A stretch of 44,360 bases of DNA from a virus, in UHGV virus genome UHGV-0173177; one strand, written 5' to 3'. The position numbers and the translations under genes were made by a program. This document shows, in pieces, positions 30,506 through 43,492 of this stretch; position 1 is the first letter of the stretch, and every line of letters begins with the position of its first letter. The notes under the pieces are model-generated. The model did not search any database and was not told the origin of the DNA. It saw only the letters and a list, made by a program, of their open reading frames with translations.

Positions 30506-30512
30506 AATTTAC

Positions 30513-30541: not shown

Positions 30542-30572
30542 TCATTTACACGAACGAGAGGAGAGACAGAAG

Positions 30573-31204: not shown

Positions 31205-31404
31205 CCAGCATCCTATTTATCTGGGTATTGTCCGCAGGCCAGATGCAACTCGCGGCAGCAGAAACGTTTTATTCGATGGAGGCGTGCCAGTCAGCGGCGC
31301 GCGCCGCAGAAAACGCGCACTTCCTGTTTCAGGGCGACAAGCCCAACGATTCAGAGGTACGCGCTATCTGCTCACCTAAGCGACTTGGTAAACAGGAGAA
31401 GTGA
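31201..31404 (+). CDS. small secreted protein (67 aa, signal peptide)
   Basis: ATG 31201 with ATGA overlap; N-terminus MTSILFIWVLSAGQMQLAAA looks like a cleavable signal. Confidence 0.45.
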   Translation: MTSILFIWVLSAGQMQLAAAETFYSMEACQSAARAAENAHFLFQGDKPNDSEVRAICSPKRLGKQEK

Positions 31405-31406
31405 TT

Positions 31407-31610
31407 ATGGTACAGAGATACTCTAAGTATGGGTCTGACAACCATTTCGGGGACCGTCACGGGGCGTGGGTTAAGTTTGAGGACTACCAGAATCTTGACC
31501 ACAAGCTGTTGGAAGTTGAAGCCGAGTTACAGAAATACAAAGACCAGTTTCCGGATTACGTCGAGTGCGCGAACTGCGGGTCAATTACACATGTGGAAGG
31601 GGTGGAGTGA
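31407..31610 (+). CDS. hypothetical protein (67 aa) with C-terminal CxxC
   Basis: ATG 31407 with AGGAG 8 nt upstream (track start 31401 is a GTG); …CANCGSITH. Confidence 0.45.
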   Translation: MVQRYSKYGSDNHFGDRHGAWVKFEDYQNLDHKLLEVEAELQKYKDQFPDYVECANCGSITHVEGVE

Positions 31611-31915
31611 TGATTGACGCGTATATCTATTGGAGTGGGGTAGCTTTTAATTTTACCCTTATCCCTGTGATTCTTTGGGCACTTTGGTGTTTGGTACTGT
31701 TCCCCGCCGTAGAAGCTGCTAGCATGGCGCGGTACTACCGAAGAATCGGAAAAGTTCACGGGATTAAAGTGCACAGCTGGTTCAGGCTTTTCCGCGCTAA
31801 CTACGAATTGTTTGGGCGCACGTTCACAGCACAGCGGTGCTCTTACGGCTATTGGGAAGGAGTAGGGCGATGGGAAGTATTTCCTGCGGAGGCCGAAAAT
31901 GAGCCTCGCAACTGA
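31610..31915 (+). CDS. small membrane protein (101 aa)
   Basis: ATG 31610 with GGAG RBS overlapping the upstream stop; hydrophobic segment FNFTLIPVILWALWCLVLF. Confidence 0.45.
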   Translation: MIDAYIYWSGVAFNFTLIPVILWALWCLVLFPAVEAASMARYYRRIGKVHGIKVHSWFRLFRANYELFGRTFTAQRCSYGYWEGVGRWEVFPAEAENEPRN

Positions 31916-32192
31916 TATCCTGAAACGAAGCGGCCTTGCGCCGCTGTCACCGAGAGTTAGAACACAGATATACAAGCGCCGCCATAACGCGCTGTACCCT
32001 GAGATTCAGGCCAGACGCAAAGCGGTCCGCGCCTGTGGATTCCAGAACGGGAAGGCCGTTAACCTCGGTGAGTTTAAAACACAGGAACGGGCAGCTATTG
32101 CGAACCGGCTATTTAATTACTGGAAATCGCTGGGATACGATGATATTCCGACGAAACCACAGAGGCGACAATACATCTGGAGACATAAATAA
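31899..32192 (+). CDS. hypothetical basic protein (97 aa)
   Basis: ORF overlapping the upstream gene end; precedes the lysis cassette. Confidence 0.45.
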   Translation: MSLATDILKRSGLAPLSPRVRTQIYKRRHNALYPEIQARRKAVRACGFQNGKAVNLGEFKTQERAAIANRLFNYWKSLGYDDIPTKPQRRQYIWRHK

Positions 32193-32222
32193 ACCGTTAT
32201 TAGGATAATTCCTACCCGTGGT

Positions 32223-32262
32223 ATCCTCCAGTTACTGCATACTTAATACGCACCTGGAGGAT
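32223..32262 (+). promoter_or_regulatory. stem-loop that would sequester the Shine-Dalgarno of the first holin gene
   Basis: ATCCTCCAG (32223-32231) is the exact reverse complement of CTGGAGGAT (32254-32262); the 3' arm contains the GGAGG RBS for TTG start 32268. Confidence 0.4.
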
Positions 32263-32267
32263 TCATC

Positions 32268-32576
32268 TTGGATAAATTTACTGAAACAGTGACGGGGTGG
32301 CTTCTCGCCGCCGCACTGGTCGGTGGATTGGTCGGGCTAAGACAACATAAAAAGTCTATATCCGGGCCGATTGACGGACTGGTATTTCTTCTCACCGGCT
32401 TCGCGTGTGCCATTTTCGGCGCACCTCTTGCGGCTCAATGGTTCGGTATTACTGGTGAGCGCGAGATAGCTGGCCTCGGATTCATCATTGCCATTCTCTG
32501 GATGCCTATCTATTCCCGCCTTTCTGGCATCGTATCGGGCGGCGATATTGCCCGCCCAGGAGGACCGCATGACTGA
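32268..32576 (+). CDS. holin-like membrane protein (three hydrophobic segments)
   Basis: 102 aa, TTG start with GGAGG RBS; three hydrophobic helices; immediately upstream of a second small membrane protein and the endolysin. Confidence 0.5.
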   Translation: MDKFTETVTGWLLAAALVGGLVGLRQHKKSISGPIDGLVFLLTGFACAIFGAPLAAQWFGITGEREIAGLGFIIAILWMPIYSRLSGIVSGGDIARPGGPHD

Positions 32577-32841
32577 GCTATTCTGGTTTGTCGTAATGCT
32601 GGCGATGGGCGCTTCGTCCCTGTTCAACGTGTATAATGAACACGTGGACGACGGGCTATTTGGGCGTGTGCTCTATATCCTGACTGCTATCGTCTGCGCC
32701 GCCGGGTGTATCCACCTGTTACAAGGCAGCATGTCACCTACGTTGCCCGAGACGTTAATCACATTAGTTGCGCTGCGTCAGATTCGTCAGGCGTGGCTGT
32801 CGTATGGAGGACATAAGTGTGTCTCGAAATATTTCAGATAA
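32569..32841 (+). CDS. holin/antiholin-like membrane protein (two hydrophobic segments)
   Basis: 90 aa from ATG 32569 with AGGAGG RBS (track ORF 32488 trimmed); helices FWFVVMLAMGASSLF and VLYILTAIVCAAGCIHLL; overlaps the endolysin start. Confidence 0.5.
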   Translation: MTELFWFVVMLAMGASSLFNVYNEHVDDGLFGRVLYILTAIVCAAGCIHLLQGSMSPTLPETLITLVALRQIRQAWLSYGGHKCVSKYFR

Positions 32842-33304
32842 TGGATTGCATTTCACTGCCGCATTTGAGGGGTTCCGTGGAACTGCGTATCGTGCTACCC
32901 CGAATGAGAAGTACCTGACTATTGGTTACGGGCACTACGGGCCAGACGTAACGCCCGGAAAGACCATCACGCCGGGACAAGGACTCCTGCTACTGAATCG
33001 CGATATGGCTAAGGCCGTAGCTGCGGTTGACGCAGCAGCACACCATTCACTGGCACAGGCGCAGTTCGATGCAGTGTGCGACCTGGTGTATAACGCGGGT
33101 GCTGGTGTGATTGCAGCTACTACAGGCACGGGTAAGGCGCTGCGTTCCGGTGATATTGCGACTCTGCGGGATAAGCTGGCGCTGTTCATCAACCAGAACG
33201 GCAAACCGTTACTTGGCCTGCGTCGCCGTACAGCCGGTCGTTTGGCGCTGTTCGACGGTAAACCGTGGCGGGAGGCGGAAGCTATCGGGAGGGCTGTTAA
33301 ATGA
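32804..33304 (+). CDS. endolysin, phage lysozyme (GH24-like)
   Basis: N-terminal catalytic region …AAFEGFRGTAYRATPNEKYLTIGYGH… and …QAQFDAVCDLVYNAG… resemble the P22 gp19 / T4-lysozyme family; start trimmed to ATG 32804. Confidence 0.75.
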   Translation: MEDISVSRNISDNGLHFTAAFEGFRGTAYRATPNEKYLTIGYGHYGPDVTPGKTITPGQGLLLLNRDMAKAVAAVDAAAHHSLAQAQFDAVCDLVYNAGAGVIAATTGTGKALRSGDIATLRDKLALFINQNGKPLLGLRRRTAGRLALFDGKPWREAEAIGRAVK

Positions 33305-33431
33305 TGGACGAATATGAAGGCGTTTAGTAAACTTATCCCTACGCTGTTTGTGCTTGCATACTAAGCCCCGGTAAACCCGAAGCAGCAGCCCAAGCGGTGG
33401 AGACTGCGTAGGGTTCAAGGGCTTATGACCG

Positions 33432-33462
33432 AAACCCGGACCGCGAATCCGGGTTTTATTTT
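33432..33462 (+). terminator. intrinsic terminator after the lysis cassette
   Basis: AAACCCGGA-ccgcgaa-TCCGGGTTT followed by TATTTT. Confidence 0.6.
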
Positions 33463-33467
33463 ACCAA

Positions 33468-33568
33468 TTGACACCTGAGACCAATCAGACGATACTTAAA
33501 TCACCTCCTGTTCCATCCCTCTGCTCTCCAGTTTTATCCCGGCACTGACCCAGCCGGGATTTTTTTTA
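33468..33568 (+). ncRNA. candidate small RNA unit: promoter-like element, ~65-nt transcript and intrinsic terminator, no ORF
   Basis: TTGACA(33468)-17-GATACT(33491); transcribed region contains CACCUCCUGUUCC; terminator CCCGGC-actgaccca-GCCGGG + T8 at 33538-33568. Confidence 0.3.
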
Positions 33569-33589
33569 TCTATTTTCTGCAATGACTAG

Positions 33590-33618
33590 TTGACTATTAC
33601 CCTCGACCTTATTATATT
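33590..33618 (+). promoter_or_regulatory. sigma70-like promoter (TTGACT-17-TATATT) for the operon starting at 33652
   Basis: TTGACT attaccctcgaccttat TATATT, followed by leader …ACGAGAacGGAGtagagaag-ATG. Confidence 0.5.
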
Positions 33619-33651
33619 TACTCCATCGACAACGAGAACGGAGTAGAGAAG

Positions 33652-33849
33652 ATGAGTAACGTATCGACGATAGAAATAACCGAGGAACTTGAAGCTAAAT
33701 GCATCGCGTCTGCTATGGGTGGGGATTCGGTGGAAAAACTACAGATGAGGGCCGCTGCGGGCTACATACGTAGAGCTAATTCCGCGATGACTGATGTTTT
33801 ACGTAAACGTTACCTCGTGAAAGCGTTAGAAATCCTGGAGAATAACTAA
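33652..33849 (+). CDS. hypothetical protein (65 aa)
   Basis: First ORF after the promoter at 33590; GGAG RBS. Confidence 0.5.
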   Translation: MSNVSTIEITEELEAKCIASAMGGDSVEKLQMRAAAGYIRRANSAMTDVLRKRYLVKALEILENN

Positions 33850-33998
33850 TGAAAATCACGGATATCGAAGCATTCAAAGACGCACAACTGATGGCGCGCA
33901 TCGCCGTTAGTAACCTGAGCAACAGCATTCCCGCGGACGCGTTCTGGTTCGCTGCAATGCAGACACTGAAAGCAGCTTATGCAGGAGAGAAGAAATGA
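33849..33998 (+). CDS. small hypothetical protein (49 aa)
   Basis: Hand-translated; TAATG and ATGA overlaps with neighbours. Confidence 0.3.
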   Translation: MKITDIEAFKDAQLMARIAVSNLSNSIPADAFWFAAMQTLKAAYAGEKK

Positions 33999-34153
33999 GC
34001 GAACACGGTGAAGTAAGCCAACCCTTACGAGTAGGCCGTAAAGTCAGTCACACCCCGTTCCCGACACGCGAGGAACTGATGAAACGTAACAGTTTCCCGG
34101 GACCGGACAAGAACAAGTATCTCAATCGCATGTGGGGAGAGCGTAAAGAATGA
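33995..34153 (+). CDS. small hypothetical protein (52 aa)
   Basis: Hand-translated; AGGAG RBS; ATGA coupling on both sides. Confidence 0.3.
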   Translation: MSEHGEVSQPLRVGRKVSHTPFPTREELMKRNSFPGPDKNKYLNRMWGERKE

Positions 34154-34368
34154 AAAAGTATAAATTCATAATTGGTGACAATCTTATGTATAACTCAACC
34201 CATTTGCGCCGTGTCCGTTGGTACAATCTACTATTTGTACGTGCAGGATTAGTTAACGTTATTGAGTGGGAGGGCATTGAGTCTGACGTTAAGGTGGCGG
34301 AGGGTTTTGCGCGCTTGTACTTCAAGAAACGCGGCATGACACCGCATGTTATGGGGCACGAGTTATGA
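34150..34368 (+). CDS. hypothetical protein (72 aa)
   Basis: Track ORF; ATGA coupling. Confidence 0.45.
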   Translation: MKKYKFIIGDNLMYNSTHLRRVRWYNLLFVRAGLVNVIEWEGIESDVKVAEGFARLYFKKRGMTPHVMGHEL

Positions 34369-34610
34369 CCGACCGTGAATACGAAAAGATGATGGTAGAG
34401 GCTGTTAACGGCGGCGTAGACATCGGTCGCGTGATGCACGTCCTGAATACTAAAATCGCGGTAGCGGAGCAAATGGTTGAGTCGCTCTATGAGACACGCC
34501 GTGAACTGATTAACCGCTTCAACCTGAACAAGTGCGAACATAAGTTCGACTACAATCCGAAAGATATGTGCGGCCAGTGTGTTAAATGTGGGGTACAGAG
34601 ACATGCCTAA
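34365..34610 (+). CDS. hypothetical protein (81 aa) with C-terminal Cys cluster
   Basis: …CEHKFDYNPKDMCGQCVKCG… suggests a small zinc-binding motif. Confidence 0.45.
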   Translation: MTDREYEKMMVEAVNGGVDIGRVMHVLNTKIAVAEQMVESLYETRRELINRFNLNKCEHKFDYNPKDMCGQCVKCGVQRHA

Positions 34611-34806
34611 AATCACAATCGCATCACTCGAGCGCCGTATCCTGGTGCTTGAGTCTGAGAAACAGACGTTAGGCGGACAACTGTCAATTAACGGTGAGTT
34701 TCAACTGGAGGCGTTTAAGTTGTTGCTCGTGAAATTGAAGGAAGAAGAGCAGAAGCTACTACTTTCCCCTGAGTTCGATTACGGTGTTGACGATGAAAGC
34801 GCCTGA
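34603..34806 (+). CDS. hypothetical coiled-coil protein (67 aa)
   Basis: ATG 34603 (track GTG start 34579 overlaps the upstream gene). Confidence 0.4.
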   Translation: MPKITIASLERRILVLESEKQTLGGQLSINGEFQLEAFKLLLVKLKEEEQKLLLSPEFDYGVDDESA

Positions 34807-34975
34807 GCCAGTAGTTATCGATGACGTCCTGTGGAAACCTTACTCGGTTAACCACATCGACGCCGACGGGAAGAAGTTCAGCTTCTACATTTTTGCAATT
34901 AGCCGTGAACACGCCGCTTGTGTGGTCGACGATATACGAGAAACGGCGTGGCTCGGTGATGAGATAGTGGGGTGA
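34793..34975 (+). CDS. hypothetical protein (60 aa)
   Basis: ATG 34793 (track ORF begins at GTG 34784). Confidence 0.4.
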   Translation: MKAPEPVVIDDVLWKPYSVNHIDADGKKFSFYIFAISREHAACVVDDIRETAWLGDEIVG

Positions 34976-34979
34976 GAGT

Positions 34980-35210
34980 ATGTTTCACGAACTAAAGATA
35001 TTACCTGAGCATTTTGAACCTGTTATGGTAGGAATCAAGCTGGCGGAACTGCGATTAAACGACCGCGATTTCAAGGAAGACGACACTCTGTGCCTGCGAG
35101 AATACGAAAACGGTGAATACACAGGCCGTATCGTTTACCGCCGCGTTATTCATGTTGCGGACGTAGGTGCTTACCTGCCTGGATACGTGCTATTAAGTAT
35201 GGAGGATTGA
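34980..35210 (+). CDS. ASCH-like (DUF3850-type) small protein
   Basis: MFHELKILPEHFEPVMVGIKLAELRLNDRDFKEDDTLCLREYENGEYTGR… matches the recalled DUF3850 pattern. Confidence 0.45.
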   Translation: MFHELKILPEHFEPVMVGIKLAELRLNDRDFKEDDTLCLREYENGEYTGRIVYRRVIHVADVGAYLPGYVLLSMED

Positions 35211-35212
35211 TT

Positions 35213-35383
35213 ATGTTCAGTGACATTAACGCAGCAATAGAAGAAGCAATCTGGCGCCGGTACAACGGCGATCAACAACGGCACTTCTGCCTGGTGCAGC
35301 GCGGTAACATGATTGCCGTAGTGCAGGACCGCGATAATAAATACCCAAATGCAATGTGGACGACGAGGAATTTCTTAGGATGA
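35213..35383 (+). CDS. small hypothetical protein (56 aa)
   Basis: Hand-translated; GGAGG RBS 6 nt upstream; ATGA overlap with the next gene. Confidence 0.3.
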   Translation: MFSDINAAIEEAIWRRYNGDQQRHFCLVQRGNMIAVVQDRDNKYPNAMWTTRNFLG

Positions 35384-35616
35384 TTACCAGCATTCCGAAC
35401 CTGATTAAAGAATTTGGCACGATGGCCGAGACATGCCGACAAACCGGCCTCAACGAAATGACGATTGCGAAGTACAGTAAAGACGTTAACTGTGAGCGCC
35501 ACGTAATTTATAACAACCGTCTCATGACGCACGTTAAGACAAGCCCTGTGTTATTCACCCGCCGGGGTATCACTAAAACTGAGCAACGTATCGCACGAGA
35601 GGAGGGTGATGTATGA
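35380..35616 (+). CDS. hypothetical protein (78 aa)
   Basis: ATG 35380 (track ORF 35356 trimmed); ATGA coupling. Confidence 0.4.
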   Translation: MITSIPNLIKEFGTMAETCRQTGLNEMTIAKYSKDVNCERHVIYNNRLMTHVKTSPVLFTRRGITKTEQRIAREEGDV

Positions 35617-35768
35617 AAAAGTTAACGGTGTACTGGAAGACAGGCGCTACATCAGAACTTGATGTTTTCAGCGTAACGCAATGTGAGAAGTTCTGGTACG
35701 CCGAAACATTCAACGGTGAAGTGAGAATCCCGTTAGCACTGGTAGACGGCGGATATATCACCGGGTAA
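35613..35768 (+). CDS. small hypothetical protein (51 aa)
   Basis: Hand-translated; GGAGGG RBS; last ORF before the terminator at 35779. Confidence 0.3.
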   Translation: MKKLTVYWKTGATSELDVFSVTQCEKFWYAETFNGEVRIPLALVDGGYITG

Positions 35769-35778
35769 CCGACCATCA

Positions 35779-35801
35779 AGCCCTCTACGGAGGGCTTTTC
35801 T
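35779..35801 (+). terminator. intrinsic terminator separating the small-gene block from the packaging/head operon
   Basis: AGCCCTC-tacg-GAGGGCT followed by TTTTC. Confidence 0.6.
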
Positions 35802-35830
35802 GTACATCCAGCCCAATCCCCTTATATAAT
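35801..35830 (+). promoter_or_regulatory. candidate promoter for the packaging/head operon (perfect -10 TATAAT, weak -35)
   Basis: TATAAT at 35825-35830 with TGTACA 18 bp upstream; inverted repeats CGTCTGA…TCAGACG at 35851-35878 lie in the leader. Confidence 0.3.
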
Positions 35831-35895
35831 CCCTTTAGACGCGTAGGGCGCGTCTGATGCGCTCTGATGGTCAGACGCATATGTCAGGGGGTTAT

Positions 35896-36441
35896 ATGAA
35901 ACTTACACTTAAGCAACCATCACCTGAGGTGGTGCAAGCTGCACATGAAGAGGCTGTTAGTGCCAACCGTCGCCGTAAACGACCGCGCGGTAAACAGAGT
36001 CTTTATCAATCATCCCGTAATTCCGCCGCGTTGTGGGACCCGGACTATTGCGACGCGTTAATCGAGTTCTTCGACCGCACGTCTTGGGAGCTTGTGCCTA
36101 CGTCTAAGGGTGACGAACGCCCGTTGATTCAGGATAAACCCCCGTCACTGGCCCGCTTCGCCTTACATATCGGCGTCACTATCCCTATTATTAAGCTGTG
36201 GCTGCGCGAGATTCCCGCATTTGCAGAAGCCTGGGAAACCGCTCAGGCGCTGGAAGAGGCGTATTTCACTGAGACAGGCGCTGCCGGTATCTCCGCTACG
36301 TTTGCTGCGGCTAAGCTGGGCTTAAGCAAAGAGAAACCTGTTGAATCCTCCGAAGAAACTGCGCCGACTGAGATTGTGTTCACCGTAGCGGAGCCGGTAG
36401 GTAAAATCGTTACCACGAACATGGGTGAGGTAGGGGAATGA
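35896..36441 (+). CDS. terminase small subunit (putative)
   Basis: About 180 aa, immediately upstream of and ATGA-coupled to the large terminase gene; basic N-terminal region; start assumed at ATG 35896. Confidence 0.5.
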   Translation: MKLTLKQPSPEVVQAAHEEAVSANRRRKRPRGKQSLYQSSRNSAALWDPDYCDALIEFFDRTSWELVPTSKGDERPLIQDKPPSLARFALHIGVTIPIIKLWLREIPAFAEAWETAQALEEAYFTETGAAGISATFAAAKLGLSKEKPVESSEETAPTEIVFTVAEPVGKIVTTNMGEVGE

Positions 36442-37688
36442 GTATTCAGCTATCCGCTCCTCAGGCGCTGTTCCTTAACTGCGATAACAAATACAAGGCC
36501 TATGTCGGTGGCTTCGGTAGCGGTAAGACGTTTGTTGGCTGTCTGGACCTGCTTACATTCATGCTTAAGCACCCCGGTACGCGCCTTGGTTACTTCGGCC
36601 CGACCTACCCGGCTATCCGCGACATCTTCTACCCGACATTCGAGGAAGCTGCTAACCTCCTGGGCCTTGATGTGCTGGTTAAATCCGGCGACAAAGAGGT
36701 CGTCGTTGCGAGAGGTAAGACAGTAATCGGTACAGTAATCTGCCGTTCGATGGATAACCCAGGCTCTATCGTCGGTTTCAAAATAGCCGCGGCGGTCGTT
36801 GATGAACTGGACGTTCTGAGCCGCGAGAAAGCGGAACTGGCGTGGAACAAAATCGTAGCCCGTATGCGTCTGGTTATCCCTGGAGTGGTAAACCACATCT
36901 CCGTTACCACGACACCGGAGGGATTCAAGTTCGTCTATGCCAAGTTCAAAGAGAACCCGACACCTAGCTACTCGATGGTGCAGGCTTCCACACACGAGAA
37001 TGCGCGGTTCCTCCCGCCGGATTACATTAGCTCGCTGACCGAGACTTACCCCGCGCAGCTGATTAACGCGTATCTTAACGGGGAGTTCGTCAACCTGACA
37101 TCCGGCAGCGTGTATTACGCCTACGACCGGCGCAAGCACCGCAGCAAAGAGACAATTCAACCTGGTGACACTTTGTACATCGGCCAGGACTTCAACGTTA
37201 CGAAGAATGCAAGCGCCGTGTATGTGCAACGTAAAGACGGCTGGCACGCAGTAGCAGAACTGAAAGGTCTGTTCGATACGCCGGATACCGTGCGCGTAAT
37301 TACAGAGAAGTGGAAGTCACAAGGCCACCGCATCGTCGTTTACCCCGACGCCAGCGGCAAGAACCGCAAGACCAACTCGGCGTCCATCTCTGACATCGCC
37401 TTACTACAGCAGGCTGGTTTCGATGTACGGGCTAAATCAGCCAACCCGCCAGTTAAAGACCGTGTTTTAGCAGTGAATACCGCACTGGAAAAAGGTAAGC
37501 TGTGGGTTAATGACCACTTATGCCCTGAGATAGCGAAGACGCTGGAGCAGCAGGCTTACGACGATAACGGGGAGCCATCCAAAGACGGCATCATAGACCA
37601 TATGGCGGATGCTCTCGGCTATCCTGTAGTTTACGAGATGCCGGTGGTTAAACCAGTAATCAACATCCCGGTGACTTTTGCACTTTAA
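36438..37688 (+). CDS. terminase large subunit
   Basis: Walker A YVGGFGSGKTF, Walker B AAVVDELD, C-terminal nuclease-like half; 416 aa. Confidence 0.85.
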   Translation: MSIQLSAPQALFLNCDNKYKAYVGGFGSGKTFVGCLDLLTFMLKHPGTRLGYFGPTYPAIRDIFYPTFEEAANLLGLDVLVKSGDKEVVVARGKTVIGTVICRSMDNPGSIVGFKIAAAVVDELDVLSREKAELAWNKIVARMRLVIPGVVNHISVTTTPEGFKFVYAKFKENPTPSYSMVQASTHENARFLPPDYISSLTETYPAQLINAYLNGEFVNLTSGSVYYAYDRRKHRSKETIQPGDTLYIGQDFNVTKNASAVYVQRKDGWHAVAELKGLFDTPDTVRVITEKWKSQGHRIVVYPDASGKNRKTNSASISDIALLQQAGFDVRAKSANPPVKDRVLAVNTALEKGKLWVNDHLCPEIAKTLEQQAYDDNGEPSKDGIIDHMADALGYPVVYEMPVVKPVINIPVTFAL

Positions 37689-37700
37689 GAGGATTATTCA

Positions 37701-39182
37701 ATGTTAACTATGAACGGTCAGAATCAGGGTGTTAAGACAAAACACCGGGAATGGCTGCATCACTTCGATAAATGGCAGAAGGTACGCCACGCTCTGGAAG
37801 GCGACCTTATTCGTTATCTGCGCAATGTCGGGAAGAACGAGCCGGACCCGACCTACGCGGCACAGCGGCAGGAAGAATACGAGAACGGCGCTATCTGCTA
37901 CAACTTCACCAAGCGCACTCTGGCGGGGATGGTGGGGTCGGTGATGCGCAAAGACCCAGAGCAGATTATTCCGCCTGAACTGGAGTACCTGTTACGCAAT
38001 GCGGACGGTTCCGGTGTCGGGCTGTGGCAGCACGCGCAAGACACTCTTATGGAAATTGACTCGGTAGGCCGTGGCGGGTTGCTGGTCGACGCCCCGGAGA
38101 CCGCCGCCGCAACGGCAGCAGAGCAGAACGCAGGATTATTAAACCCGGTCATCGCTTTCTATACCGCAGAGAACATCATCAACTGGCGACTGACCCGCAT
38201 CGGTTCGGTTAACCGTGTGACAATGGTCGTGCTGCGTGAGGTGTGGGAATACTCAGAACCTGGCGCAGAGTTTGAAACCAAGTTCGGTGGGCAATACCGT
38301 GTCCTTGACCTGATTGACAGCCGCTATCGCCAGCGCATATACCGTTTCGATGCCGAAGGTGGTGCGCAGGGCGAAGTAATCGAAATATTCCCTGAACTTG
38401 GCGAACAGTTACGCGGCAAAATCCCGTTCACGTTCATCGGGGCAAGCAACAACGATGCCACCATCGACGACGCACCTTTGCTACCGTTAGCTGAGCTGAA
38501 TATCGGGCATTTCCGTAACAGCGCGGACAATGAAGAGTCCAGTTTCGTTGTAGGCCAGCCCACTCTGTTCATCGCCCCGGGCGAGAACATGAGCATGGAA
38601 CAGTGGAAAGAGGCCAACCCACACGGCGTGCGCATGGGGTCTCGTTCAGGCCATAACATCGGGTACGGCGGCAACGCGTTTCTGGTTCAGGCAGGGGAGA
38701 ACAACCTGGCTAAGCAGAACATGCTGGATAAAGAGAATCAGGCCATCCAGATTGGCGCGCAGCTTATCACCCCGACGCAGCAAATAACCGCTGAATCGGC
38801 CCGCCTGCAACGTGGTGCGGATACGTCTGTTATGGCGACAATCGCACGTAACGTAAGCATGGCGTACACCGATTCGTTGCGCTGGGTGGCTGCGATGCTA
38901 GGGTTGCGTGAAGGCACAGAGATTGAGTTCAAACTTAACATGGAGTTCTTCCTGCAACCGATGACCGCTCAGGACCGCGCTCAGTGGATGGCGGACATTA
39001 ACGCTGGCTTGTTACCCGCCACTGCTTATTACGCCGCGCTGCGTAAGGCTGGCGTAACCGACTGGACCGACGAGGACATTCAGAACGCTATTGAGGATGC
39101 GCCGCTGCCGTTGGGTGCGGTTACTCAGGTGACAGGCGAGATTCCGCAGGAGGCGCAGCAACAAGACGCCACTCAGCAGTAA
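37701..39182 (+). CDS. portal protein
   Basis: 493-aa ORF with GAGGA RBS directly downstream of the large terminase gene. Confidence 0.65.
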   Translation: MLTMNGQNQGVKTKHREWLHHFDKWQKVRHALEGDLIRYLRNVGKNEPDPTYAAQRQEEYENGAICYNFTKRTLAGMVGSVMRKDPEQIIPPELEYLLRNADGSGVGLWQHAQDTLMEIDSVGRGGLLVDAPETAAATAAEQNAGLLNPVIAFYTAENIINWRLTRIGSVNRVTMVVLREVWEYSEPGAEFETKFGGQYRVLDLIDSRYRQRIYRFDAEGGAQGEVIEIFPELGEQLRGKIPFTFIGASNNDATIDDAPLLPLAELNIGHFRNSADNEESSFVVGQPTLFIAPGENMSMEQWKEANPHGVRMGSRSGHNIGYGGNAFLVQAGENNLAKQNMLDKENQAIQIGAQLITPTQQITAESARLQRGADTSVMATIARNVSMAYTDSLRWVAAMLGLREGTEIEFKLNMEFFLQPMTAQDRAQWMADINAGLLPATAYYAALRKAGVTDWTDEDIQNAIEDAPLPLGAVTQVTGEIPQEAQQQDATQQ

Positions 39183-39192
39183 GTTCACATAT

Positions 39193-39214
39193 AGCCCCGA
39201 AAGGGGCTTTCTTA
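39193..39214 (+). terminator. intrinsic terminator/attenuator between portal and head-morphogenesis genes
   Basis: AGCCCC-gaaa-GGGGCT followed by TTCTTAT (interrupted T-run, so likely partial). Confidence 0.45.
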
Positions 39215-39218
39215 TAGT

Positions 39219-40295
39219 ATGCTATTAACTTTAGCGTCACAGGGTTTATCTATGAGCTTACTTACATCCCTAATCAGCCACCAGATATGGCTGCAACGCA
39301 CCGCATCCGGTGAAGTGAAAGACCTCGCACCGTTCCTTCAGGAGATGCGGGACGAAATCAAACGGCAGGTGCTGTTATTCGGCGACGACGGGCGAAGCAC
39401 CGCGCGACTGAATAAACTGTTACGCGACCTTGAAGAAGCACTTACCGCGCTTACCGGTGACTGGCAAACGAAGCTGACAGAAGACCTTAAGGAGCTGGCC
39501 GCGTATGAGGCTGAGTGGAACGTAAAGACACTGGCAACCAACGTTAACGCGGAATTTGTTACGCCTACCGCCGAACAAGTGTGGGCCGCTGCTGAGTTTC
39601 AACCGCTCTCACTGAGCGACAAGCCAGTTGATTTCGTGAAGCTGATGGAAGGCTGGGGTGAAACGGAAGTATCGCGCCTTGTAACCGGCGTTAAGATGGG
39701 CTTTGTACAAGGTCAAACCACACGGCAGATTGTTAAGAATGTTGTAGGTGCTGGTGGGCTGGCGGACATCTCTGAACGCAACGCGGCTACGGTAATCCGC
39801 ACCGCGCTTTCCCATGTATCAAACGAAGCCCGTAACGAGACGTACCGTCAGAACGACGACATCATCGAGAAATACGAGTGGGTGTCAACGCTGGACAGCC
39901 GTACCAGTACGATTTGCAGAGCCAGAGACGGAATGACATGGGAAATTGGTAAAGGGCCGATGCCCCCCGCCCATCCGAACTGTCGGTCGTGCACGGCGCC
40001 AGTAATCAGTTCCGAGTTCGACTTCCTAGATAAAGGTGCAAAACGCGCGGCTAAGGGTGCGGACGGCGGTATGCAGGTAAGCGCAGACACCACCTATTAC
40101 GAGTTCCTGAAACAGCAACCGGCATGGTTCGTGGATGAAGCACTCGGCCCGGTGCGGGGTAAGATTTTCCGCAACAGCGGTATATCGCCGGAAGAGTTTC
40201 GCGTAATATCTGTAGATGGTTTCGGGAATCCGCTGACGCTTAAGCAGATGGCGGAACTCGATAAACGTGTTGCTGATTATCTGAAAGGGGAATAA
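39219..40295 (+). CDS. head morphogenesis protein (SPP1 gp7 / Mu F-like)
   Basis: C-terminal region …TLDSRTSTICRARDGMTWEIGKGPMPPAHPNCRSCTAP matches the Mu F / SPP1 gp7 family signature; start uncertain (39219 or 39252). Confidence 0.6.
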   Translation: MLLTLASQGLSMSLLTSLISHQIWLQRTASGEVKDLAPFLQEMRDEIKRQVLLFGDDGRSTARLNKLLRDLEEALTALTGDWQTKLTEDLKELAAYEAEWNVKTLATNVNAEFVTPTAEQVWAAAEFQPLSLSDKPVDFVKLMEGWGETEVSRLVTGVKMGFVQGQTTRQIVKNVVGAGGLADISERNAATVIRTALSHVSNEARNETYRQNDDIIEKYEWVSTLDSRTSTICRARDGMTWEIGKGPMPPAHPNCRSCTAPVISSEFDFLDKGAKRAAKGADGGMQVSADTTYYEFLKQQPAWFVDEALGPVRGKIFRNSGISPEEFRVISVDGFGNPLTLKQMAELDKRVADYLKGE

Positions 40296-40756
40296 TGATG
40301 GGCTTTTTCAAAGTAACTGATGTGCTGTCACGTCGTGTAGTCCAGTACGCCCGCGTGTCTGGCTCTGGCGAGAACGTGGTATTTATCGAAGATGAAAGTG
40401 TACTGGGTACACCAGTAGACGATATGCCGTTTGCGGATAAAACCGGTATTGCGTTGCCAGCCGCGGGTATGCTTTATGAAATTCCGTATCTGGCTGACGC
40501 AGGCGACGTGTACTTCTCGGCGCAACCGCAGGACGCTGAACTGGCGGACGGCAGCGCAACTATCACTGTCGAAGTTAAGGCGGGCAAAGCGCCGTATGCT
40601 CTTACCTGGTACAAAGACGGTAAGGAAGTTGTAAACGCACCTGAAGAGGCCTTGTCTCTGACGGTTAACGCAGCAGGTGAATACTTCGTTAAAGTCACCG
40701 ATGCCGGTGGCGTAGAGGCCGTCAGTAAAGCGGCGAAGGTAACTAAGCCAGAATGA
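40295..40756 (+). CDS. Ig-like domain protein (possible capsid decoration/accessory protein)
   Basis: C-terminal ~80 aa has the Ig pattern …YALTWYKDGKEV…AGEYFVKVTDAGG…; paralogous to the domain in 43493-43831. Confidence 0.45.
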   Translation: MMGFFKVTDVLSRRVVQYARVSGSGENVVFIEDESVLGTPVDDMPFADKTGIALPAAGMLYEIPYLADAGDVYFSAQPQDAELADGSATITVEVKAGKAPYALTWYKDGKEVVNAPEEALSLTVNAAGEYFVKVTDAGGVEAVSKAAKVTKPE

Positions 40757-40760
40757 TAAA

Positions 40761-40783
40761 AAGCCCCGTTAAGGGGCTTTTTA
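40761..40783 (+). terminator. intrinsic terminator
   Basis: AAGCCCC-gtta-AGGGGCTT followed by TTTT. Confidence 0.7.
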
Positions 40784-40832
40784 GTGCCTGTGATTATTCC
40801 AGTTATTCCACTAAATTGTAAATGTTGGAATA

Positions 40833-40848
40833 AACTATTCGAATAGTT
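40833..40848. promoter_or_regulatory. perfect 16-bp palindrome AACTATTCGAATAGTT, overlapping a promoter-like -35 (TTGACT, 40847-40852)
   Basis: Read directly; half-sites CTATT/AATAG are those of the promoter-associated palindrome family, in everted arrangement. Confidence 0.5.
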
Positions 40849-41055
40849 GACTTTTCACTGAAAATATGATAAGCTCCACCTGAGCTTGTGAAGTATGAAC
40901 AAGCGACCGCGGCGCGGGCAGGTAACGGAGCGGGACGTAAGTCCTGAGTGTAGTTACGCTGACGCGTTCGGAAGGGCCATACTCTATTGCTTGTGTAAAA
41001 AGTAACTGGTTTACTGAGATTACGCCGTTTCTATGTTTAAATGATAAGGACTAGC

Positions 41056-41080
41056 GCCCCGCTTTATGGCGGGGCTTTAC
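41056..41080 (+). terminator. candidate intrinsic terminator closing the 40.8-41.1 kb non-coding unit
   Basis: GCCCCGC-tttatg-GCGGGGC followed by TTTACTTAT (interrupted T-run). Confidence 0.4.
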
Positions 41081-41099
41081 TTATCGAGAAAGGAGAAAC

Positions 41100-41486
41100 A
41101 TGAATCTTAAAGCAACTGTCGTAGCGGGAGCATGTTTCATCATCCTGGCTTACGCACACGGCATCTACCAGTATCGCAGCGGCTGGAACGAAGGCCGGGC
41201 GAATCTCGTTTCGCAGCAACAGCATGAAGCACAAGCTGAGTTAGCGAAGAAAACACAACGGCAGCAGCAGGATGAATCAAAGGCCGCCGCCGCCGACAAC
41301 GAAGGCAAGACGAAATCAGAGGTCATTACCCGTGAAGTCGTTAAGTACATTAAAACGCCTGGTCGCAGCGTGTGCACTTTCGATGATGCTCGCGTCCTGC
41401 TCAAGTCCCGAGCCGTCGCAAACGCCAATTCCATACCCGGATACGACAATGATGCAGCCGCCGTGCAAACTGGCCGCACCAAGTAG
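41100..41486 (+). CDS. Rz: Rz-like inner-membrane spanin
   Basis: 128 aa; N-terminal transmembrane helix, Gln/Ala/Lys-rich coiled-coil middle, periplasmic Cys; AAGGAG RBS; contains a +1-frame lipoprotein ORF. Confidence 0.55.
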   Translation: MNLKATVVAGACFIILAYAHGIYQYRSGWNEGRANLVSQQQHEAQAELAKKTQRQQQDESKAAAADNEGKTKSEVITREVVKYIKTPGRSVCTFDDARVLLKSRAVANANSIPGYDNDAAAVQTGRTK

Positions 41487-41595
41487 CGATGCCGACGAGG
41501 ATTTGGCTATCGACGTCCAGAACGCCGAATGTGTACGGCAACTGAGGCTGAAAGTGTTCATGTTGCAGGATTACGTGAGGAATATTCTGGAATAG
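41332..41595 (+). CDS. Rz1: Rz1-like outer-membrane lipoprotein spanin, overlapping Rz in the +1 frame
   Basis: GTG 41332 with GAGG upstream; signal peptide ending in lipobox LASC; Pro-rich mature region CSSPEPSQTPIPYPD…. Confidence 0.5.
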   Translation: MKSLSTLKRLVAACALSMMLASCSSPEPSQTPIPYPDTTMMQPPCKLAAPSSDADEDLAIDVQNAECVRQLRLKVFMLQDYVRNILE

Positions 41596-41677
41596 TTGCC
41601 TTGCATGTTGGAATAATTTATTCTTGACATGTAAATCCGGGCGGCCCGGGTTCCAACGTCCAGGGGACATACTGACT

Positions 41678-42379
41678 ATGAATCGTTTTTTACGTTATCC
41701 GTTCCAGGAAGAAGCTGGAGCAGAAGATAAAGCTGGTGGCGGTGACGCACCAAAAATGTTCACCGCTGAAGAAGTTCAGGCGCTGATTGAGAAAGAAGTT
41801 GCCGGGCTTAAGGCAAATCAGGAAGCGTTGCTGGCGGAGAAGAAAGAAGCCGCTCGCAAAGCAAAAGAGGCCGAAGAACAACGGCAGCGCGCGCACCAGG
41901 AGGCGTTAAAGGCTGCTGGTAAGATGGACGAGTTCGAAAAAACGATTCGTAGCCAGTATGACCCGGTGTTAGCCGAGAAAGATGGTCGCATCTCCAAAAT
42001 GGCGGAGCGCATCCTCGGCAGCGAACGTAAAGCGGTGTTAGGCTCTTTTGCGGGTGACTTTATTACCCCGGAAGCAGCGGACATTCTTGCACCGTTCGTC
42101 AAGACTGAGTTCGAAGGTGATGATGTGGTTACTAAGTTTGTCGGCCCAGACGGCAACGTAATCACGACTGACCCGGAACAGTTCCGCAAATACCTGCGCG
42201 AACACAAAGCGTTTTCGCATTTGATTAAAGCAAATGCAGCTTCCGGCGGCGGGGCTTCCGGTAGCAAAGGCGGCGGGGCCGCACCAGCGTTTAAAGACAT
42301 GAGTGAAGCAGAGCGTTTAGCCCTGTATAAATCGAACCCTGCCGAATTTGAACGGCAACTTAAAGCCCTGAGGAAATAA
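41678..42379 (+). CDS. scaffolding protein (putative)
   Basis: ~230 aa, Ala/Glu/Lys-rich and helical, immediately upstream of the major capsid gene; track TTG start 41624 trimmed to ATG 41678. Confidence 0.5.
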   Translation: MNRFLRYPFQEEAGAEDKAGGGDAPKMFTAEEVQALIEKEVAGLKANQEALLAEKKEAARKAKEAEEQRQRAHQEALKAAGKMDEFEKTIRSQYDPVLAEKDGRISKMAERILGSERKAVLGSFAGDFITPEAADILAPFVKTEFEGDDVVTKFVGPDGNVITTDPEQFRKYLREHKAFSHLIKANAASGGGASGSKGGGAAPAFKDMSEAERLALYKSNPAEFERQLKALRK

Positions 42380-42381
42380 TA

Positions 42382-43431
42382 ATGGCAATTACCACTATCG
42401 GCGATATCGTAACTGGCAACATCCCGGTCCTGGCGTCTTACATGACCGAGGACCCGGTAGAAAAAACTGCGTTCTTCCAGTCCGGTATTCTGACCCCGAC
42501 TCCGCACGCTGCCGAGATTGCCCGCGGCCCGTCCAACGTCGCTAATATTCCGTTCTGGAAAGCGATTGACACTTCCATCGAGCCTAACTACTCGAACGAC
42601 GTATACCAGGACATCGCTACCCCGCGTAACGTGCAGACCGGCGAGATGATGGCGCGCGTTGCATACCTGAACGAAGGCTTTGGCCAGGCGGACCTGACCG
42701 TTGAACTGACCAGCCAGAACCCGCTGCAATCTGTGGCTTCTCGCCTGGATAACTTCTGGCAGCGTCAGGCACAACGCCGTCTGATTGCTACTGCGCTCGG
42801 TCTGTACAATGACAACGTAGCTGCTACCGACGAATACCATGAGCAGAACGACATGGTAATCGACGTGTCCTCTACTCTGGGCTTCGACGCTGGCGCGTTC
42901 ATCGACGCTACCCAGACTATGGGTGATGCACTGATGGGTAACGGTGGTGAAGTGCTGGGCGCTATCGCTATGCACAGCTTCGTATACGCGCAGGCGCGTA
43001 AGCAGCAGCTCATTGACTTCACCAGAGACGCCGACAACGACACCCTGTTTGCCACCTACCAGGGCTACCGTGTGATTGTTGACGACAGCATGACTGTAGT
43101 CGGTACCGGCAGCAGCCGTAAGTTCATCTCCATCATCTTCGGCAACGGCGCTATCGGTTACGGAGAAGGTAACCCGACCAATCCGCTGGCATATGAGCGC
43201 GAAGAGTCCCGCGGCAACGGCGGTGGCGTCGAAACCCTGTGGACACGTAAGACTTGGTTGCTGCACCCACTGGGCTACCGCTTCACCAGCGCGGAGATCA
43301 CCGGCAACGGCACCGAGACCGTCGCACGCTCCGCTTCCTGGCAGGACCTGGCGAACGCCTCCAACTGGAACCGTGTTGTTGGCCGTAAGCACGTACCGAT
43401 TGCCTTCCTGGTAACTGGTGTAGGGTCTTAA
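42382..43431 (+). CDS. major capsid protein
   Basis: 349-aa ORF with GAGGA RBS after the scaffold gene and before a strong terminator; assigned by gene order, size and context. Confidence 0.65.
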   Translation: MAITTIGDIVTGNIPVLASYMTEDPVEKTAFFQSGILTPTPHAAEIARGPSNVANIPFWKAIDTSIEPNYSNDVYQDIATPRNVQTGEMMARVAYLNEGFGQADLTVELTSQNPLQSVASRLDNFWQRQAQRRLIATALGLYNDNVAATDEYHEQNDMVIDVSSTLGFDAGAFIDATQTMGDALMGNGGEVLGAIAMHSFVYAQARKQQLIDFTRDADNDTLFATYQGYRVIVDDSMTVVGTGSSRKFISIIFGNGAIGYGEGNPTNPLAYEREESRGNGGGVETLWTRKTWLLHPLGYRFTSAEITGNGTETVARSASWQDLANASNWNRVVGRKHVPIAFLVTGVGS

Positions 43432-43446
43432 GGTTAAGATATAATC

Positions 43447-43471
43447 GAGAGGGACTTCGGTCCCTCTTTTC
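43447..43471 (+). terminator. intrinsic terminator after the major capsid gene
   Basis: GAGAGGGAC-ttcg-GTCCCTC followed by TTTT. Confidence 0.7.
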
Positions 43472-43492
43472 ATTTACTAAGAGGATTCCTCA

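Follow-up and report, generated by a model that had tools for sequence, protein, structure and literature searches.

A Jersey-family spanin pair among the head genes of a Kagunavirus genome, with a conserved structured RNA just upstream

The window, a stretch of 44,360 nucleotides (UHGV virus genome UHGV-0173177) that was analysed as a whole, is a genome of the genus Kagunavirus (Guernseyvirinae) with about 98% identity to Kagunavirus 536P11. Two overlapping genes are found there at 41100-41595, with a Hoc-like gene (40295-40756) upstream and the scaffold gene (41678-42379) downstream. The DNA of this region is 94-98% identical to Kagunavirus genomes in which the pair is annotated as i-spanin and o-spanin, and such an annotation is carried by K1G, K1ind1-3, Sciku and Shashou. 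A preliminary description of this DNA had called the two genes an Rz/Rz1 spanin pair read in two frames and placed between an Ig-like protein gene and a scaffold gene; PHROG families confirmed both neighbours, and PHROG spanin families matched both products of the pair.

The i-spanin gene (41100-41486, + strand) starts with ATG and encodes a protein of 128 amino acids that matches phrog_2536, 'Rz-like spanin', with an E value of 2.7e-54. The protein has a hydrophobic segment at residues 5-23 (Kyte-Doolittle 1.72), predicted to form an N-terminal transmembrane helix, and no second segment of this kind. It contains two cysteines, Cys12 and Cys92, the second of which would be periplasmic and is present in 48/48 sequences. 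The single-sequence AlphaFold2 model consists of helices at residues 3-84 and 94-107, with pLDDT values of 74-88 over residues 1-60 and below 50 from residue 81. A Shine-Dalgarno sequence, AAGGAG (41090-41095, + strand), is found 4 nt 5' of the ATG and is kept as AAGGAG or AAGGGG among relatives.

The +1 frame is open from 41272 to 41595, and within it the o-spanin gene (41332-41595, + strand) starts with GTG and encodes a proline-rich protein of 87 amino acids (8 Pro) with a predicted signal peptide and the lipobox LASC. This ORF matches two families named 'Rz-like spanin', phrog_5672 (3e-30) and phrog_1267 (6e-18). A lipoprotein signal was what the preliminary description had asked for in this frame, and from GTG 41332 the product conforms to the PROSITE rule PS51257, with Cys23 in the LASC motif and a lysine within the first 7 residues. 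The mature protein has Ser at position +2, where relatives have Ser, Asn, Arg, Gln or Ala and no Asp; a lipoprotein in which Asp is absent at +2 sorts to the outer membrane. Additional cysteines are Cys45 and Cys67. PS51257 is passed by 38/48 o-spanins, including all 34 Kaguna-like ones (LASC, LSAC or LSGC), and 10/48 have LNGC, which fits only a looser definition of the spanin lipobox. In nearly all Kaguna-like loci no in-frame start other than the GTG at 41332 is found in the 40 codons before the lipobox cysteine; one of these loci also has a TTG two codons downstream of the GTG, and in some Jersey-like loci ATG replaces GTG at the same position.

The overlap of the two genes is 155 nt long (41332-41486, + strand) and codes in both spanin frames, the o-spanin being in the +1 frame, as had been described. 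It is very improbable that the +1 ORF is open by chance alone, with the 128-residue membrane protein as the only real product. Chance would be consistent with the frequency of the lipobox pattern, which a six-frame search of the window finds at 12 start codons, in about 9 ORFs; the pattern is not rare, and the case for the o-spanin therefore rests on the combination of its features. Several public records also have only a 47-aa fragment at the o-spanin position, or nothing. Against chance stand the matches of the ORF to PHROG spanin families and the preservation of the start codon, the lipobox and the two cysteines across lineages that are just 61-65% identical. The distribution of variable sites among 34 Kaguna-like relatives argues in the same direction, since both frames are under purifying selection with a switch of frame exactly at the Rz stop. 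In the Rz-only segment the variable sites favour the third position of the Rz codons (52 versus 25 and 17, p 2e-5), and past the Rz stop they move to the third position of the +1 frame (23 versus 10 and 4 in the Rz1-only segment, p 7e-4). Among the coding segments the overlap is the least variable (30% of sites), and its codon periodicity is weakened.

We are highly confident that this Kagunavirus locus encodes a two-component spanin of ordinary type, belonging to the 'Jersey' overlapped family. As described by Kongari et al. 2018, this family has an overlap of 155 bp and constant o-spanin cysteines Cys45 and Cys67, and its members include Jersey, SETP3, K1G, K1H, K1ind1-3, HK578 and SO-1 (PMC6139136). 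The pair in the window shares with the family the 155-bp overlap, the two o-spanin cysteines and the N-terminal transmembrane helix of the i-spanin, and the DNA of its locus is 94-96% identical to that of K1G and K1ind1-3. There is no difference of substance, and the pair reads as another member of the family.

Like Rz and Rz1 of lambda, the pair combines a type II inner-membrane protein with an outer-membrane lipoprotein that is small, rich in proline and encoded in the +1 frame, both systems have periplasmic cysteines, and the role is presumed to be equal. Unlike the lambda genes, those in the window lie outside the lysis cassette and off the late leader of holin and endolysin, and the o-spanin gene extends past the end of the i-spanin gene, whereas that of lambda is fully embedded. 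Sequence homology is also undetectable: Pfam, searched with E values up to 0.01, has no family for either product, so that homology to the lambda proteins, whose Pfam families we take to be Phage_lysis and Rz1, was ruled out and 'Rz/Rz1' serves as a functional label only. The spanin function of the pair is predicted from features of the two sequences and by analogy with lambda. In the literature searched, we found no experimental study of this phage or of any Jersey-family spanin.

The lysis cassette is found at 32268-33304 on the + strand. It begins with a holin gene (32268-32576; TTG start; phrog_2359, E 2.4e-32; holin in PV656002, RP180), followed by a second holin gene (32569-32841; phrog_2508, E 3.4e-34), which had earlier been termed antiholin-like, and by the gene for an endolysin of the phage lysozyme type (32819-33304), which matches PF00959 Phage_lysozyme (E 6.5e-27) and PHROG endolysin families. 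Pfam had no match for either of the holins. By eye the N-terminus of the endolysin is not hydrophobic, and the enzyme therefore appears to be of the soluble type. The cassette closes a block of small genes whose upstream end is the divergent region near 29042. The preliminary description had put the lysis genes, with these coordinates, at the end of an operon and roughly 8 kb from the spanins; we agree with the coordinates and the distance, and the genes do end a + strand block. The block is closed by a terminator hairpin with a U-tract (33431-33465, + strand; dG -14.4, z -3.2), followed at 33468-33618 by two promoters with a short hairpin between them. The endolysin stop and the start of Rz are 7,795 bp apart, and several hairpin terminators lie in this distance. 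A canonical contiguous cassette of holin, endolysin and spanin genes was not found in the window.

The same gene order, Hoc, Rz/Rz1, scaffold and major capsid protein, is found in 47/47 related IMG/VR loci, and in none of these 47 is there a holin or endolysin gene within 4 kb of the spanins. In the Dhillonvirus SO-1 and in Pantoea phage AH01 the spanins are at the equivalent place. The placement of the spanins in the head cluster is an inherited trait of the whole clade formed by Guernseyvirinae and Dhillonvirus. Such an arrangement had been reported before (PMC6139136; PMC6763661). For Escherichia phage Schulenberg, a Guernseyvirinae-like phage, the spanins have been reported as genetically separate from the lysis cassette, as they are here, although the announcement concerns another phage and discusses neither mechanism nor timing (PMC6763661). 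In T4, the spanin genes pseT.3 and pseT.2 are likewise far from the holin gene t and the endolysin gene e (PMC6139136), but they are separated genes of another family and lie outside the head-gene cluster. That the T4 spanins are unlinked to holin and endolysin indicates that linkage is not needed for function. Both the spanin pair and its placement among the head genes are already known, conserved and published.

Less ordinary is what lies directly before the spanins, a conserved structured RNA that the preliminary description overlooked. It had described the interval before the pair as bounded by terminators, and the part of this that stands is the strong terminator T1 after the Hoc-like gene (40757-40783), with a perfect stem of 11 bp (dG -17.2, z -4.4). 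Sciku carries a terminator annotation at T1. With an A-run on one side of its stem and a T-run on the other, T1 can work bidirectionally, and transcription arriving from the upstream head genes may pass it. However, the interval is not a mere spacer, as it contains a sigma-70-like promoter, a structured RNA of about 120 nt with compensatory changes, and a second hairpin, T2, with a poor tail.

The promoter-like site (40847-40875, + strand) consists of TTGACT, a spacer of 17 nt and TGaTAAGCT, an extended -10 element. It is conserved in three sequence lineages: Jersey-like loci keep its architecture (TAGACT or TTGACT, 17 nt, TGtTACGCT), and the paralogous promoter in the early operon of relatives reads TTGACT, 17 nt, TGgTAAGCT. 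The site is below the threshold of a simple scanner because its weak -10 hexamer, TAAGCT, matches at 3/6 positions, and a generic promoter scanner gave fewer promoter-like sites in the region than are given by shuffles. Adjoining the -35 element are operator-like palindromes (40828-40848), GAATAAACTATTC and the perfect 16-mer AACTATTCGAATAGTT. The exact form GAATA-N3-TATTC is present only twice in the window, at 40828 and 41611, and with at most one mismatch there are six matches in the window, a count reached by no shuffle. The near-match at 44042 coincides with a ribosome-binding site and start codon and was taken as chance. The 12-mer ATGTTGGAATAA was rejected as a genome-wide promoter motif, having two local copies only and a count not above chance.

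Immediately downstream of the promoter is the core of the structured RNA (about 120 nt, 40878-40997, + strand), which RNAalifold folds into a 5' hairpin, P0, and a long irregular hairpin, P1-P2-P3, with a GUAA loop, followed by the invariant UUCGGAAGG. A covariance model of this RNA, R1, has one match in the window (141 bits, E 1e-35) and 59 matches in related contigs, 36 of them distinct. In the alignment 91.9% of cells are paired, versus 30-41% in slid controls, and 10 pairs have changes on both sides. The covariation score is 0.223 versus 0.091 for shuffles, and 0/500 shuffles reach 0.223. Identity of the RNA is 95% or more in 179/183 phage records, and that of the spanin genes ranges from 60 to 98%. 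Over the whole window Rfam 15 gave no match at gathering score; below threshold, with E up to 5 across 40700-41700, the best scores were 13.6-15.7 bits (E 1.8-4.1), over the RNA and its 3' hairpin. ARAGORN detected neither a tRNA nor a tmRNA. Many records annotate the region of the RNA as a hypothetical protein of 36 aa, an ORF (40895-41005) that we rejected as a gene, as it has neither codon periodicity (14/14/10) nor a PHROG match.

Many relatives have the promoter and RNA twice, the second copy standing at the head of the operon that closes with holin and endolysin, and a separate promoter then serves the genes downstream of that copy. Some genomes carry the RNA before both lysis-related operons. 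The window has no second copy, whether searched by BLAST or with the covariance model run unfiltered; at its early-operon site the RNA copy is absent and the site's own promoter is retained. SO-1 and AH01 have the spanins at the same place without the RNA. A scan for the RNA pattern in 185,579 bacterial genomes, one per species, gave 29 matches. We took 27 of these as chance, because they were unconfirmed by the model and came from unrelated, mostly high-G+C taxa, and the two real matches are in small phage-like contigs, one mis-binned and one a contaminant. No host homologue of the RNA was found in this set of one genome per species. Complementarity of the RNA to the rest of the window was limited to 11-nt matches, which is the level of chance.

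The T2 hairpin (41056-41085, + strand) has an 8-bp stem with 7 GC and a weak tail, TTTACTTATC (dG -16.4 to -18.1), and ends about 15-25 nt before the Rz start codon. Its stem is preserved by compensatory changes (CG to GC, GC to AU), and its tail reads UUUACUUAUC in the window, which is poor, and UUAGCGUAUA in Jersey-like loci, which is not a U-tract. T2 may terminate transcription in part, or it may be a hairpin for processing or stabilisation. No promoter-like sequence was seen in the 24 nt that separate it from the Rz start codon, and the pair is therefore most likely read through from the promoter of the RNA.

On the other side of the pair, the intergenic region between Rz1 and the scaffold gene (41596-41677, + strand) is the most conserved stretch of the locus, with 12% of sites varying among 34 Kaguna-like loci versus 30-41% in the spanin coding segments. 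It carries the second copy of a 19-nt repeat, ATGTTGGAATAAtTTATTC, present as a direct repeat with 17/19 positions identical, together with the GAATAATTTATTC palindrome, TTGACA and the hairpin CCGGG-CGG-CCCGG, the dG of which (-10.9) is no better than that of shuffles. The scaffold side may have a promoter of its own in this region.

By analogy with lambda, the N-terminal helix would anchor the 128-aa product in the inner membrane, from where this protein would reach into the periplasm, and the 87-aa product would be exported, lipidated at Cys23 and delivered to the outer membrane. The two would bind through their C-termini and form covalent dimers through periplasmic cysteines. Once the holin triggers and the endolysin clears the peptidoglycan mesh, the complex would collapse and fuse the inner and outer membranes, thereby completing lysis. 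In the lambda system the spanins accumulate in the envelope and are inactive under intact peptidoglycan until the endolysin acts. Spanins need only accumulate before the holin fires, and so their genes need not adjoin those of holin and endolysin; since peptidoglycan holds them inactive until then, no special coupling is required. As for transcription, we infer that transcripts from the upstream head genes would mostly end at T1 and that the promoter at 40847-40875 would initiate a structured leader of roughly 200 nt. Some transcription would pass the weak-tailed T2 into Rz/Rz1 and probably onward in the direction of scaffold and capsid. Likely points of control are the GAATA-N3-TATTC palindromes and the leader RNA.

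The preliminary description had seen in the separation a division of timing, with holin and endolysin in an early or middle operon and the spanins in a late head operon, so that outer-membrane disruption could be tied to late expression. In this reading the tie would be a deliberate safeguard of timing. The two gene sets do lie in different terminator-bounded blocks, that of the endolysin beginning at the divergent region near 29042, and the palindromes at the spanin-side promoter are missing from the early-operon copy of relatives, which makes separate control possible. We nevertheless consider a division of this kind unlikely. In the sole Kagunavirus RNA-seq study, the transcriptome of vB_Eco_K1B4, which resolves time very coarsely and whose text does not mention the spanins by name, lysozyme and head genes fall into one 'middle' class (PMC12645636), and its supplementary tables have no per-gene phage expression classes (PMC12645636). 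The same promoter and RNA module heads both blocks in many relatives, and this points towards shared rather than split control. In addition, the + strand blocks from 29042 onward are all co-directional, 'early' is an assumption, and a holin made early would still set the time of lysis by its own triggering, so that the safeguard is not obvious.

One tentative reading, which we take to be less likely than not, is that the RNA regulates in cis, either by a put-like read-through of T2 and later terminators or as a terminated leader in the Q-dependent style of lambda PR'-6S-tR'; in either form, the expression of the spanins and late head genes would possibly depend on it. The layout agrees with this in both contexts, as the RNA starts at its promoter and its two stem-loop domains are followed by a hairpin and then by genes. 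So do the compensatory changes that keep the structure across five sequence types, the conservation of the RNA beyond that of the spanin genes, and the stretch before Rz without promoter-like sequence. Yet the early-operon copy is dispensable, as it is absent from the window where its own promoter is kept, SO-1 and AH01 do without the RNA altogether, the covariance model has no significant match at PL/PR of HK022, and with so weak a tail at T2 antitermination may be unneeded. Perhaps, instead, the RNA is an independent sRNA gene unrelated to the spanins, which acts in trans on a host or phage target from a permissive intergenic hot spot. An own promoter, a terminal hairpin and extreme sequence conservation would suit such a gene, as would the separate promoter that follows the second copy in relatives. 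The gap from the Hoc-like gene to the RNA ranges from 0 to about 770 bp among relatives, which suggests a hot spot of insertion. However, Rz begins 24 nt past the hairpin with no promoter-like sequence seen between them, the complementarity within the window is not significant, and the search for a host homologue, in one genome per species, returned only the two real matches that look like phage DNA. We regard this alternative, too, as no better than a doubtful possibility.

Two known systems provide the models for an action in cis. The put RNAs of HK022 are promoter-proximal, have two stem-loop domains and act in cis in processive antitermination. The RNA described here resembles them in that many relatives have two paralogous copies per genome, each placed before a hairpin and an operon, and differs in that the RNA in the window is longer. 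Searched against HK022 24000-40751, model R1 found nothing significant at the PL/PR region, and its best match, of 13.9 bits over the PR' promoter, covers a partial hairpin only; homology to putL and putR was therefore dropped. The lambda arrangement PR'-6S RNA-tR', the Stx-phage version of which yields the sRNA StxS (PMC7547250), is alike in layout only, with a constitutive-looking promoter and a leader of roughly 200 nt that ends in a hairpin and is followed by lysis genes. In contrast to lambda, the hairpin in the window has a weak tail and the leader precedes the spanins and head genes, not holin and endolysin; no Q-like protein was identified here, and sequence similarity is absent.

For the spanin finding itself little is at stake. 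Automatic annotation of the clade should call the full-length, GTG-initiated o-spanin, and searches for spanins should not be confined to the neighbourhoods of endolysin genes. The added value lies in the upstream interval, with its highly conserved, structured, promoter-proximal RNA without an Rfam family. This RNA is a cheaply testable candidate for the control of late and lysis genes in the Guernseyvirinae, phages of which are widely used in therapy collections. It is possible, though we put this forward with some reserve, that the RNA (core 40878-40997) is a phage-specific molecule not described before and sets transcription into Rz/Rz1, scaffold and capsid genes, and that the paralogous copy of relatives does likewise for the holin/endolysin operon. 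If this is true, a single RNA module would bring both halves of the lysis system, physically apart as they are, under coordinated control.

The coordinates of the preliminary description all held, with open reading frames and PHROG or lysozyme matches at the spanin, neighbour, holin and endolysin genes. The i-spanin gene, here called Rz, is a 128-aa ORF on the + strand (41100-41486) that matches spanin family phrog_2536 (E 2.7e-54), and the o-spanin gene Rz1 (41332-41595, + strand) lies in the +1 frame, which is without a stop from 41272 to 41595, and matches spanin families phrog_5672 (E 3e-30) and phrog_1267. A Pfam search with both products gave no match. The Rz product has a single hydrophobic segment (residues 5-23) and two cysteines, Cys12 and Cys92, and its AlphaFold2 single-sequence model is one long helix over residues 3-84, with pLDDT 74-88 in the first 60 residues and low confidence at the C-terminus. 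The lipoprotein signal anticipated for the +1 ORF was found: translated from GTG 41332, the product matches the PROSITE lipoprotein rule, with lipobox LASC and Cys23, a lysine in the first seven residues and serine at +2, and it carries additional Cys45 and Cys67 and eight prolines. Over all six frames of the window, the lipobox pattern by itself is matched from 12 start codons, belonging to about 9 ORFs; it is thus the features taken together, and the comparison with relatives, that make the case for an o-spanin.

For the comparison we aligned the region from 47 related IMG/VR loci, and codon-position counts were made on 34 Kaguna-like sequences. Variable sites fell mostly at Rz codon position 3 in the Rz-only segment (52 versus 25 and 17; p 2e-5) and mostly at the third position of the +1 frame in the Rz1-only segment (23 versus 10 and 4; p 7e-4), and therefore purifying selection switches frame as the annotation predicts. 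The 155-nt overlap was the least variable of the segments compared (30% variable sites). In nearly all Kaguna-like loci, no in-frame start other than GTG 41332 lies in the 40 codons preceding the lipobox cysteine; one locus has an extra TTG two codons downstream, and ATG takes the place of the GTG in some Jersey-like loci. Across relatives the lipobox reads LASC, LSAC, LSGC or LNGC and the two downstream cysteines are conserved, as is Rz Cys92 (48 of 48 sequences). With spanin families for both products and selection in both frames, the description of an overlapping two-frame spanin pair is upheld, and as far as sequence can tell the identity is secure. "Rz/Rz1" is a label of role here and not of family, with no sequence homology to lambda Rz/Rz1 recognizable by Pfam. 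In some public records the o-spanin is cut to its C-terminal 47 residues (window 41452-41595; PV656002.1 9491-9634), starting at an internal Met and without the signal peptide and lipobox; the phrog_5672 profile (47 positions) is likewise limited to this part, and other records have no o-spanin annotated.

In size (44,360 bp) and gene order the window corresponds to a complete Guernseyvirinae genome. The 1 kb surrounding the pair shows 97.9% identity to Kagunavirus 536P11 and 93-97% to many E. coli Kagunavirus genomes that carry annotation, among them K1G, K1ind1-3, Sciku, Shashou and ST20. As described, the pair sits between a Hoc-like/Ig decoration gene (40295-40756; phrog_3945, E 1e-84) and the scaffold gene (41678-42379; phrog_206, E 7.6e-56). 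The two holin family matches (32268-32576 and 32569-32841) and the endolysin, a phage lysozyme (32819-33304), are indeed about 8 kb away, with 7,795 bp from endolysin stop to Rz start. A hydrophobic mini-ORF of 16 codons, MKAFSKLIPTLFVLAY, read by eye just past the endolysin stop (33314-33364), has no cysteine and is thus neither a lipoprotein nor a unimolecular spanin. On the - strand a 551-aa ORF (41818-43473) runs antisense over the scaffold and major capsid genes; PV656002.1 gives it as a CDS and leaves the scaffold and capsid genes out, almost certainly a gene-calling error given the + strand PHROG scaffold match and the annotations of Sciku and Raoultella phage RP180.

The order Hoc-like, Rz/Rz1, scaffold, major capsid was found in 47 of 47 IMG/VR loci, and none of the 47 had a holin or endolysin within 4 kb of the spanins. 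Dhillonvirus SO-1 has the order portal, head morphogenesis, Rz/Rz1, moron, scaffold, and Pantoea phage AH01 has a spanin pair between decoration and scaffold genes; by tblastn the i-spanin was found in 637 phage records. The position among the head genes is ancestral. Between Kaguna-like and Jersey-like genomes the spanins share 61-65% protein identity and the scaffold and capsid 88-92%, a faster divergence of the spanins than of the genes beside them. Around the cassette some loci are mosaics; three (L035, L036 and L049) join a Kaguna-like leader to a Jersey-like spanin, which suggests recombination there. Additional DNA, inside or beside the head-morphogenesis gene, is present in several relatives.

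The separation from the lysis cassette is a clade-wide trait that has already been published, for Escherichia phage Schulenberg in its genome announcement (PMC6763661). In the Sciku and Shashou records these two genes are labelled i-spanin and o-spanin with reference to the overlapping inner- and outer-membrane spanin proteins of K1G, and Kongari et al. 2018 placed K1G, K1H and K1ind1-3 in their 'Jersey' family of overlapped two-component spanins, whose 155-bp overlap and constant o-spanin cysteines at 45 and 67 equal those measured in the window (PMC6139136). In other papers ORFs 7-8 are given as the spanins and ORFs 66-68 as the holins and endolysin, with no further remark (PMC7203180). The spanins of T4, too, lie away from its holin t and endolysin e (PMC6139136).

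The pair had been described as preceded by its own terminator-bounded interval. Two hairpins are present, but the interval also holds palindromes, a promoter-like site and a structured RNA, and the second hairpin is at best a partial terminator. The first (T1, 40757-40783) is strong, with A- and T-runs on its flanks (dG -17.2, z -4.4), and is followed by the palindromes GAATAAACTATTC and a perfect 16-mer, AACTATTCGAATAGTT, the latter running into the TTGACT of the promoter-like site (40847-40875; TTGACT, 17 nt, TGaTAAGCT). A generic scanner misses this site because only three of six -10 hexamer positions match; Jersey-like loci, and a paralogous copy at another place in related genomes, retain its layout of -35 element, 17 nt and extended -10. 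A stretch of about 200 nt follows, ending in the second hairpin (T2, 41056-41075), 8 bp and GC-rich with the tail TTTACTTATC. In Jersey-like loci the T2 stem is preserved by compensatory changes and the tail is TTAGCGTATA, without a U-tract, which is why termination would be partial at best. The ribosome-binding site and start of Rz lie within 24 nt of T2, and no promoter-like sequence was seen in these 24 nt; Rz/Rz1 are most likely transcribed by read-through from the promoter at 40847. The spacing between the stop of the Hoc-like gene and the RNA differs by as much as about 770 bp among the 47 loci, which marks the space ahead of the RNA promoter (window 40784-40796) as an insertion hot spot.

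Of 183 phage records, 179 have the region downstream of this promoter at 95% identity or more, a conservation far above that of the spanin genes. Many records annotate a hypothetical protein at the equivalent of a 36-aa ORF (40895-41005), but its variable sites lack codon periodicity (14/14/10) and a PHROG search with it gave no match. Folding of Kaguna-like and Jersey-like sequences with RNAalifold gave helices with compensatory changes, and a covariance model (R1; 121 positions, 28 pairs) has a single match in the window, 40878-40997 at 141 bits, and 59 matches (36 distinct) in related contigs. In the R1-fitted alignment, which is biased towards the structure, being fitted to it, 91.9% of cells pair versus 30-41% with the partners slid, ten pairs are changed on both sides, and the covariation score is 0.223 versus 0.091 in shuffles (0 of 500 reach it). 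When tested on a plain MAFFT alignment, this structure had 88% of cells paired and a covariation score of 0.171, versus 0.077 in shuffles. In the fold, a short 5' hairpin precedes a long, irregular one, made up of P1 (which has a bulged C), P2 and P3 (with a GUAA cap in the window), and the invariant UUCGGAAGG comes last. Judged on these patterns, 40878-40997 is the core of a conserved promoter-proximal structured RNA (unit about 40847-41085) and not a protein gene.

This RNA is confined to Kagunavirus- and Jerseyvirus-like genomes. A pattern built from its invariant parts found 53 stretches in IMG/VR, one or two copies per contig, all in Guernseyvirinae-like contigs of 41-45 kb or fragments of such, and a bacterial scan with one genome per species found it in two small phage-like contigs only. 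An Rfam search gave no match, and R1 found nothing in SO-1 and AH01. The put RNAs of HK022 were considered as an analogue, and R1 gave nothing significant in that phage.

The gap between Rz1 and scaffold (41596-41677) is the most conserved part of the locus, with 12% of sites variable versus 30-41% in the spanin coding segments. It carries 17 of 19 bases of the motif preceding the RNA promoter, including GAATA-N3-TATTC, whose only exact occurrences in the 44-kb window are beside that promoter (40828-40848) and in this gap (41611-41623). The palindrome is also conserved in Jersey-like loci and is read as a putative operator for a phage regulator.

It had also been proposed that the lysis functions are split over differently timed units, with the lysis block expressed before the head genes. 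In lambda, spanins stay inactive until peptidoglycan degradation; expression from an unlinked site calls for no special explanation. The lysis cassette is indeed last in its block, and a U-tract hairpin (33431-33465) closes it, followed by a promoter, a short hairpin and a further promoter. These signals are dense (33431-33620): the terminator hairpin and TTGACA-17 nt-GATACT are followed only about 40-70 nt downstream by a second hairpin, eight T directly behind it, and then by TTGACT-17 nt-TATATT, so that the middle part would yield a very short transcript. The only Kagunavirus time-course classed the lysozyme gene as 'middle' together with head morphogenesis and capsid genes (PMC12645636); this is weak evidence on timing, since the study sampled over several latent periods and does not name the spanins. 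The proposed difference in timing, with its coupling of outer-membrane disruption to late gene expression, is unsupported and has a low probability.

Many relatives have, beside the spanin-side copy, a diverged paralogue of the RNA with a near-identical promoter (in RP180 at 38090-38200, 77% identity), upstream of a + strand block ending in holin, holin and endolysin, and followed by its own hairpin and a second promoter. In RP180 (MK737937, 38058-38290) the copy is followed by CTCA tandem repeats, the hairpin GGTGCC-TTCG-GGCACC and the second promoter, and a copy upstream of the holin/holin/endolysin operon also occurs in contigs L061, L064, L065, L070, L099 and L104. The window has no second copy and has a plain terminator at the corresponding place. 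The interval before Rz is worth attention in its own right, and in the two-copy relatives each half of the lysis functions is headed by the same module of promoter and RNA, which argues for shared, and against split, control.
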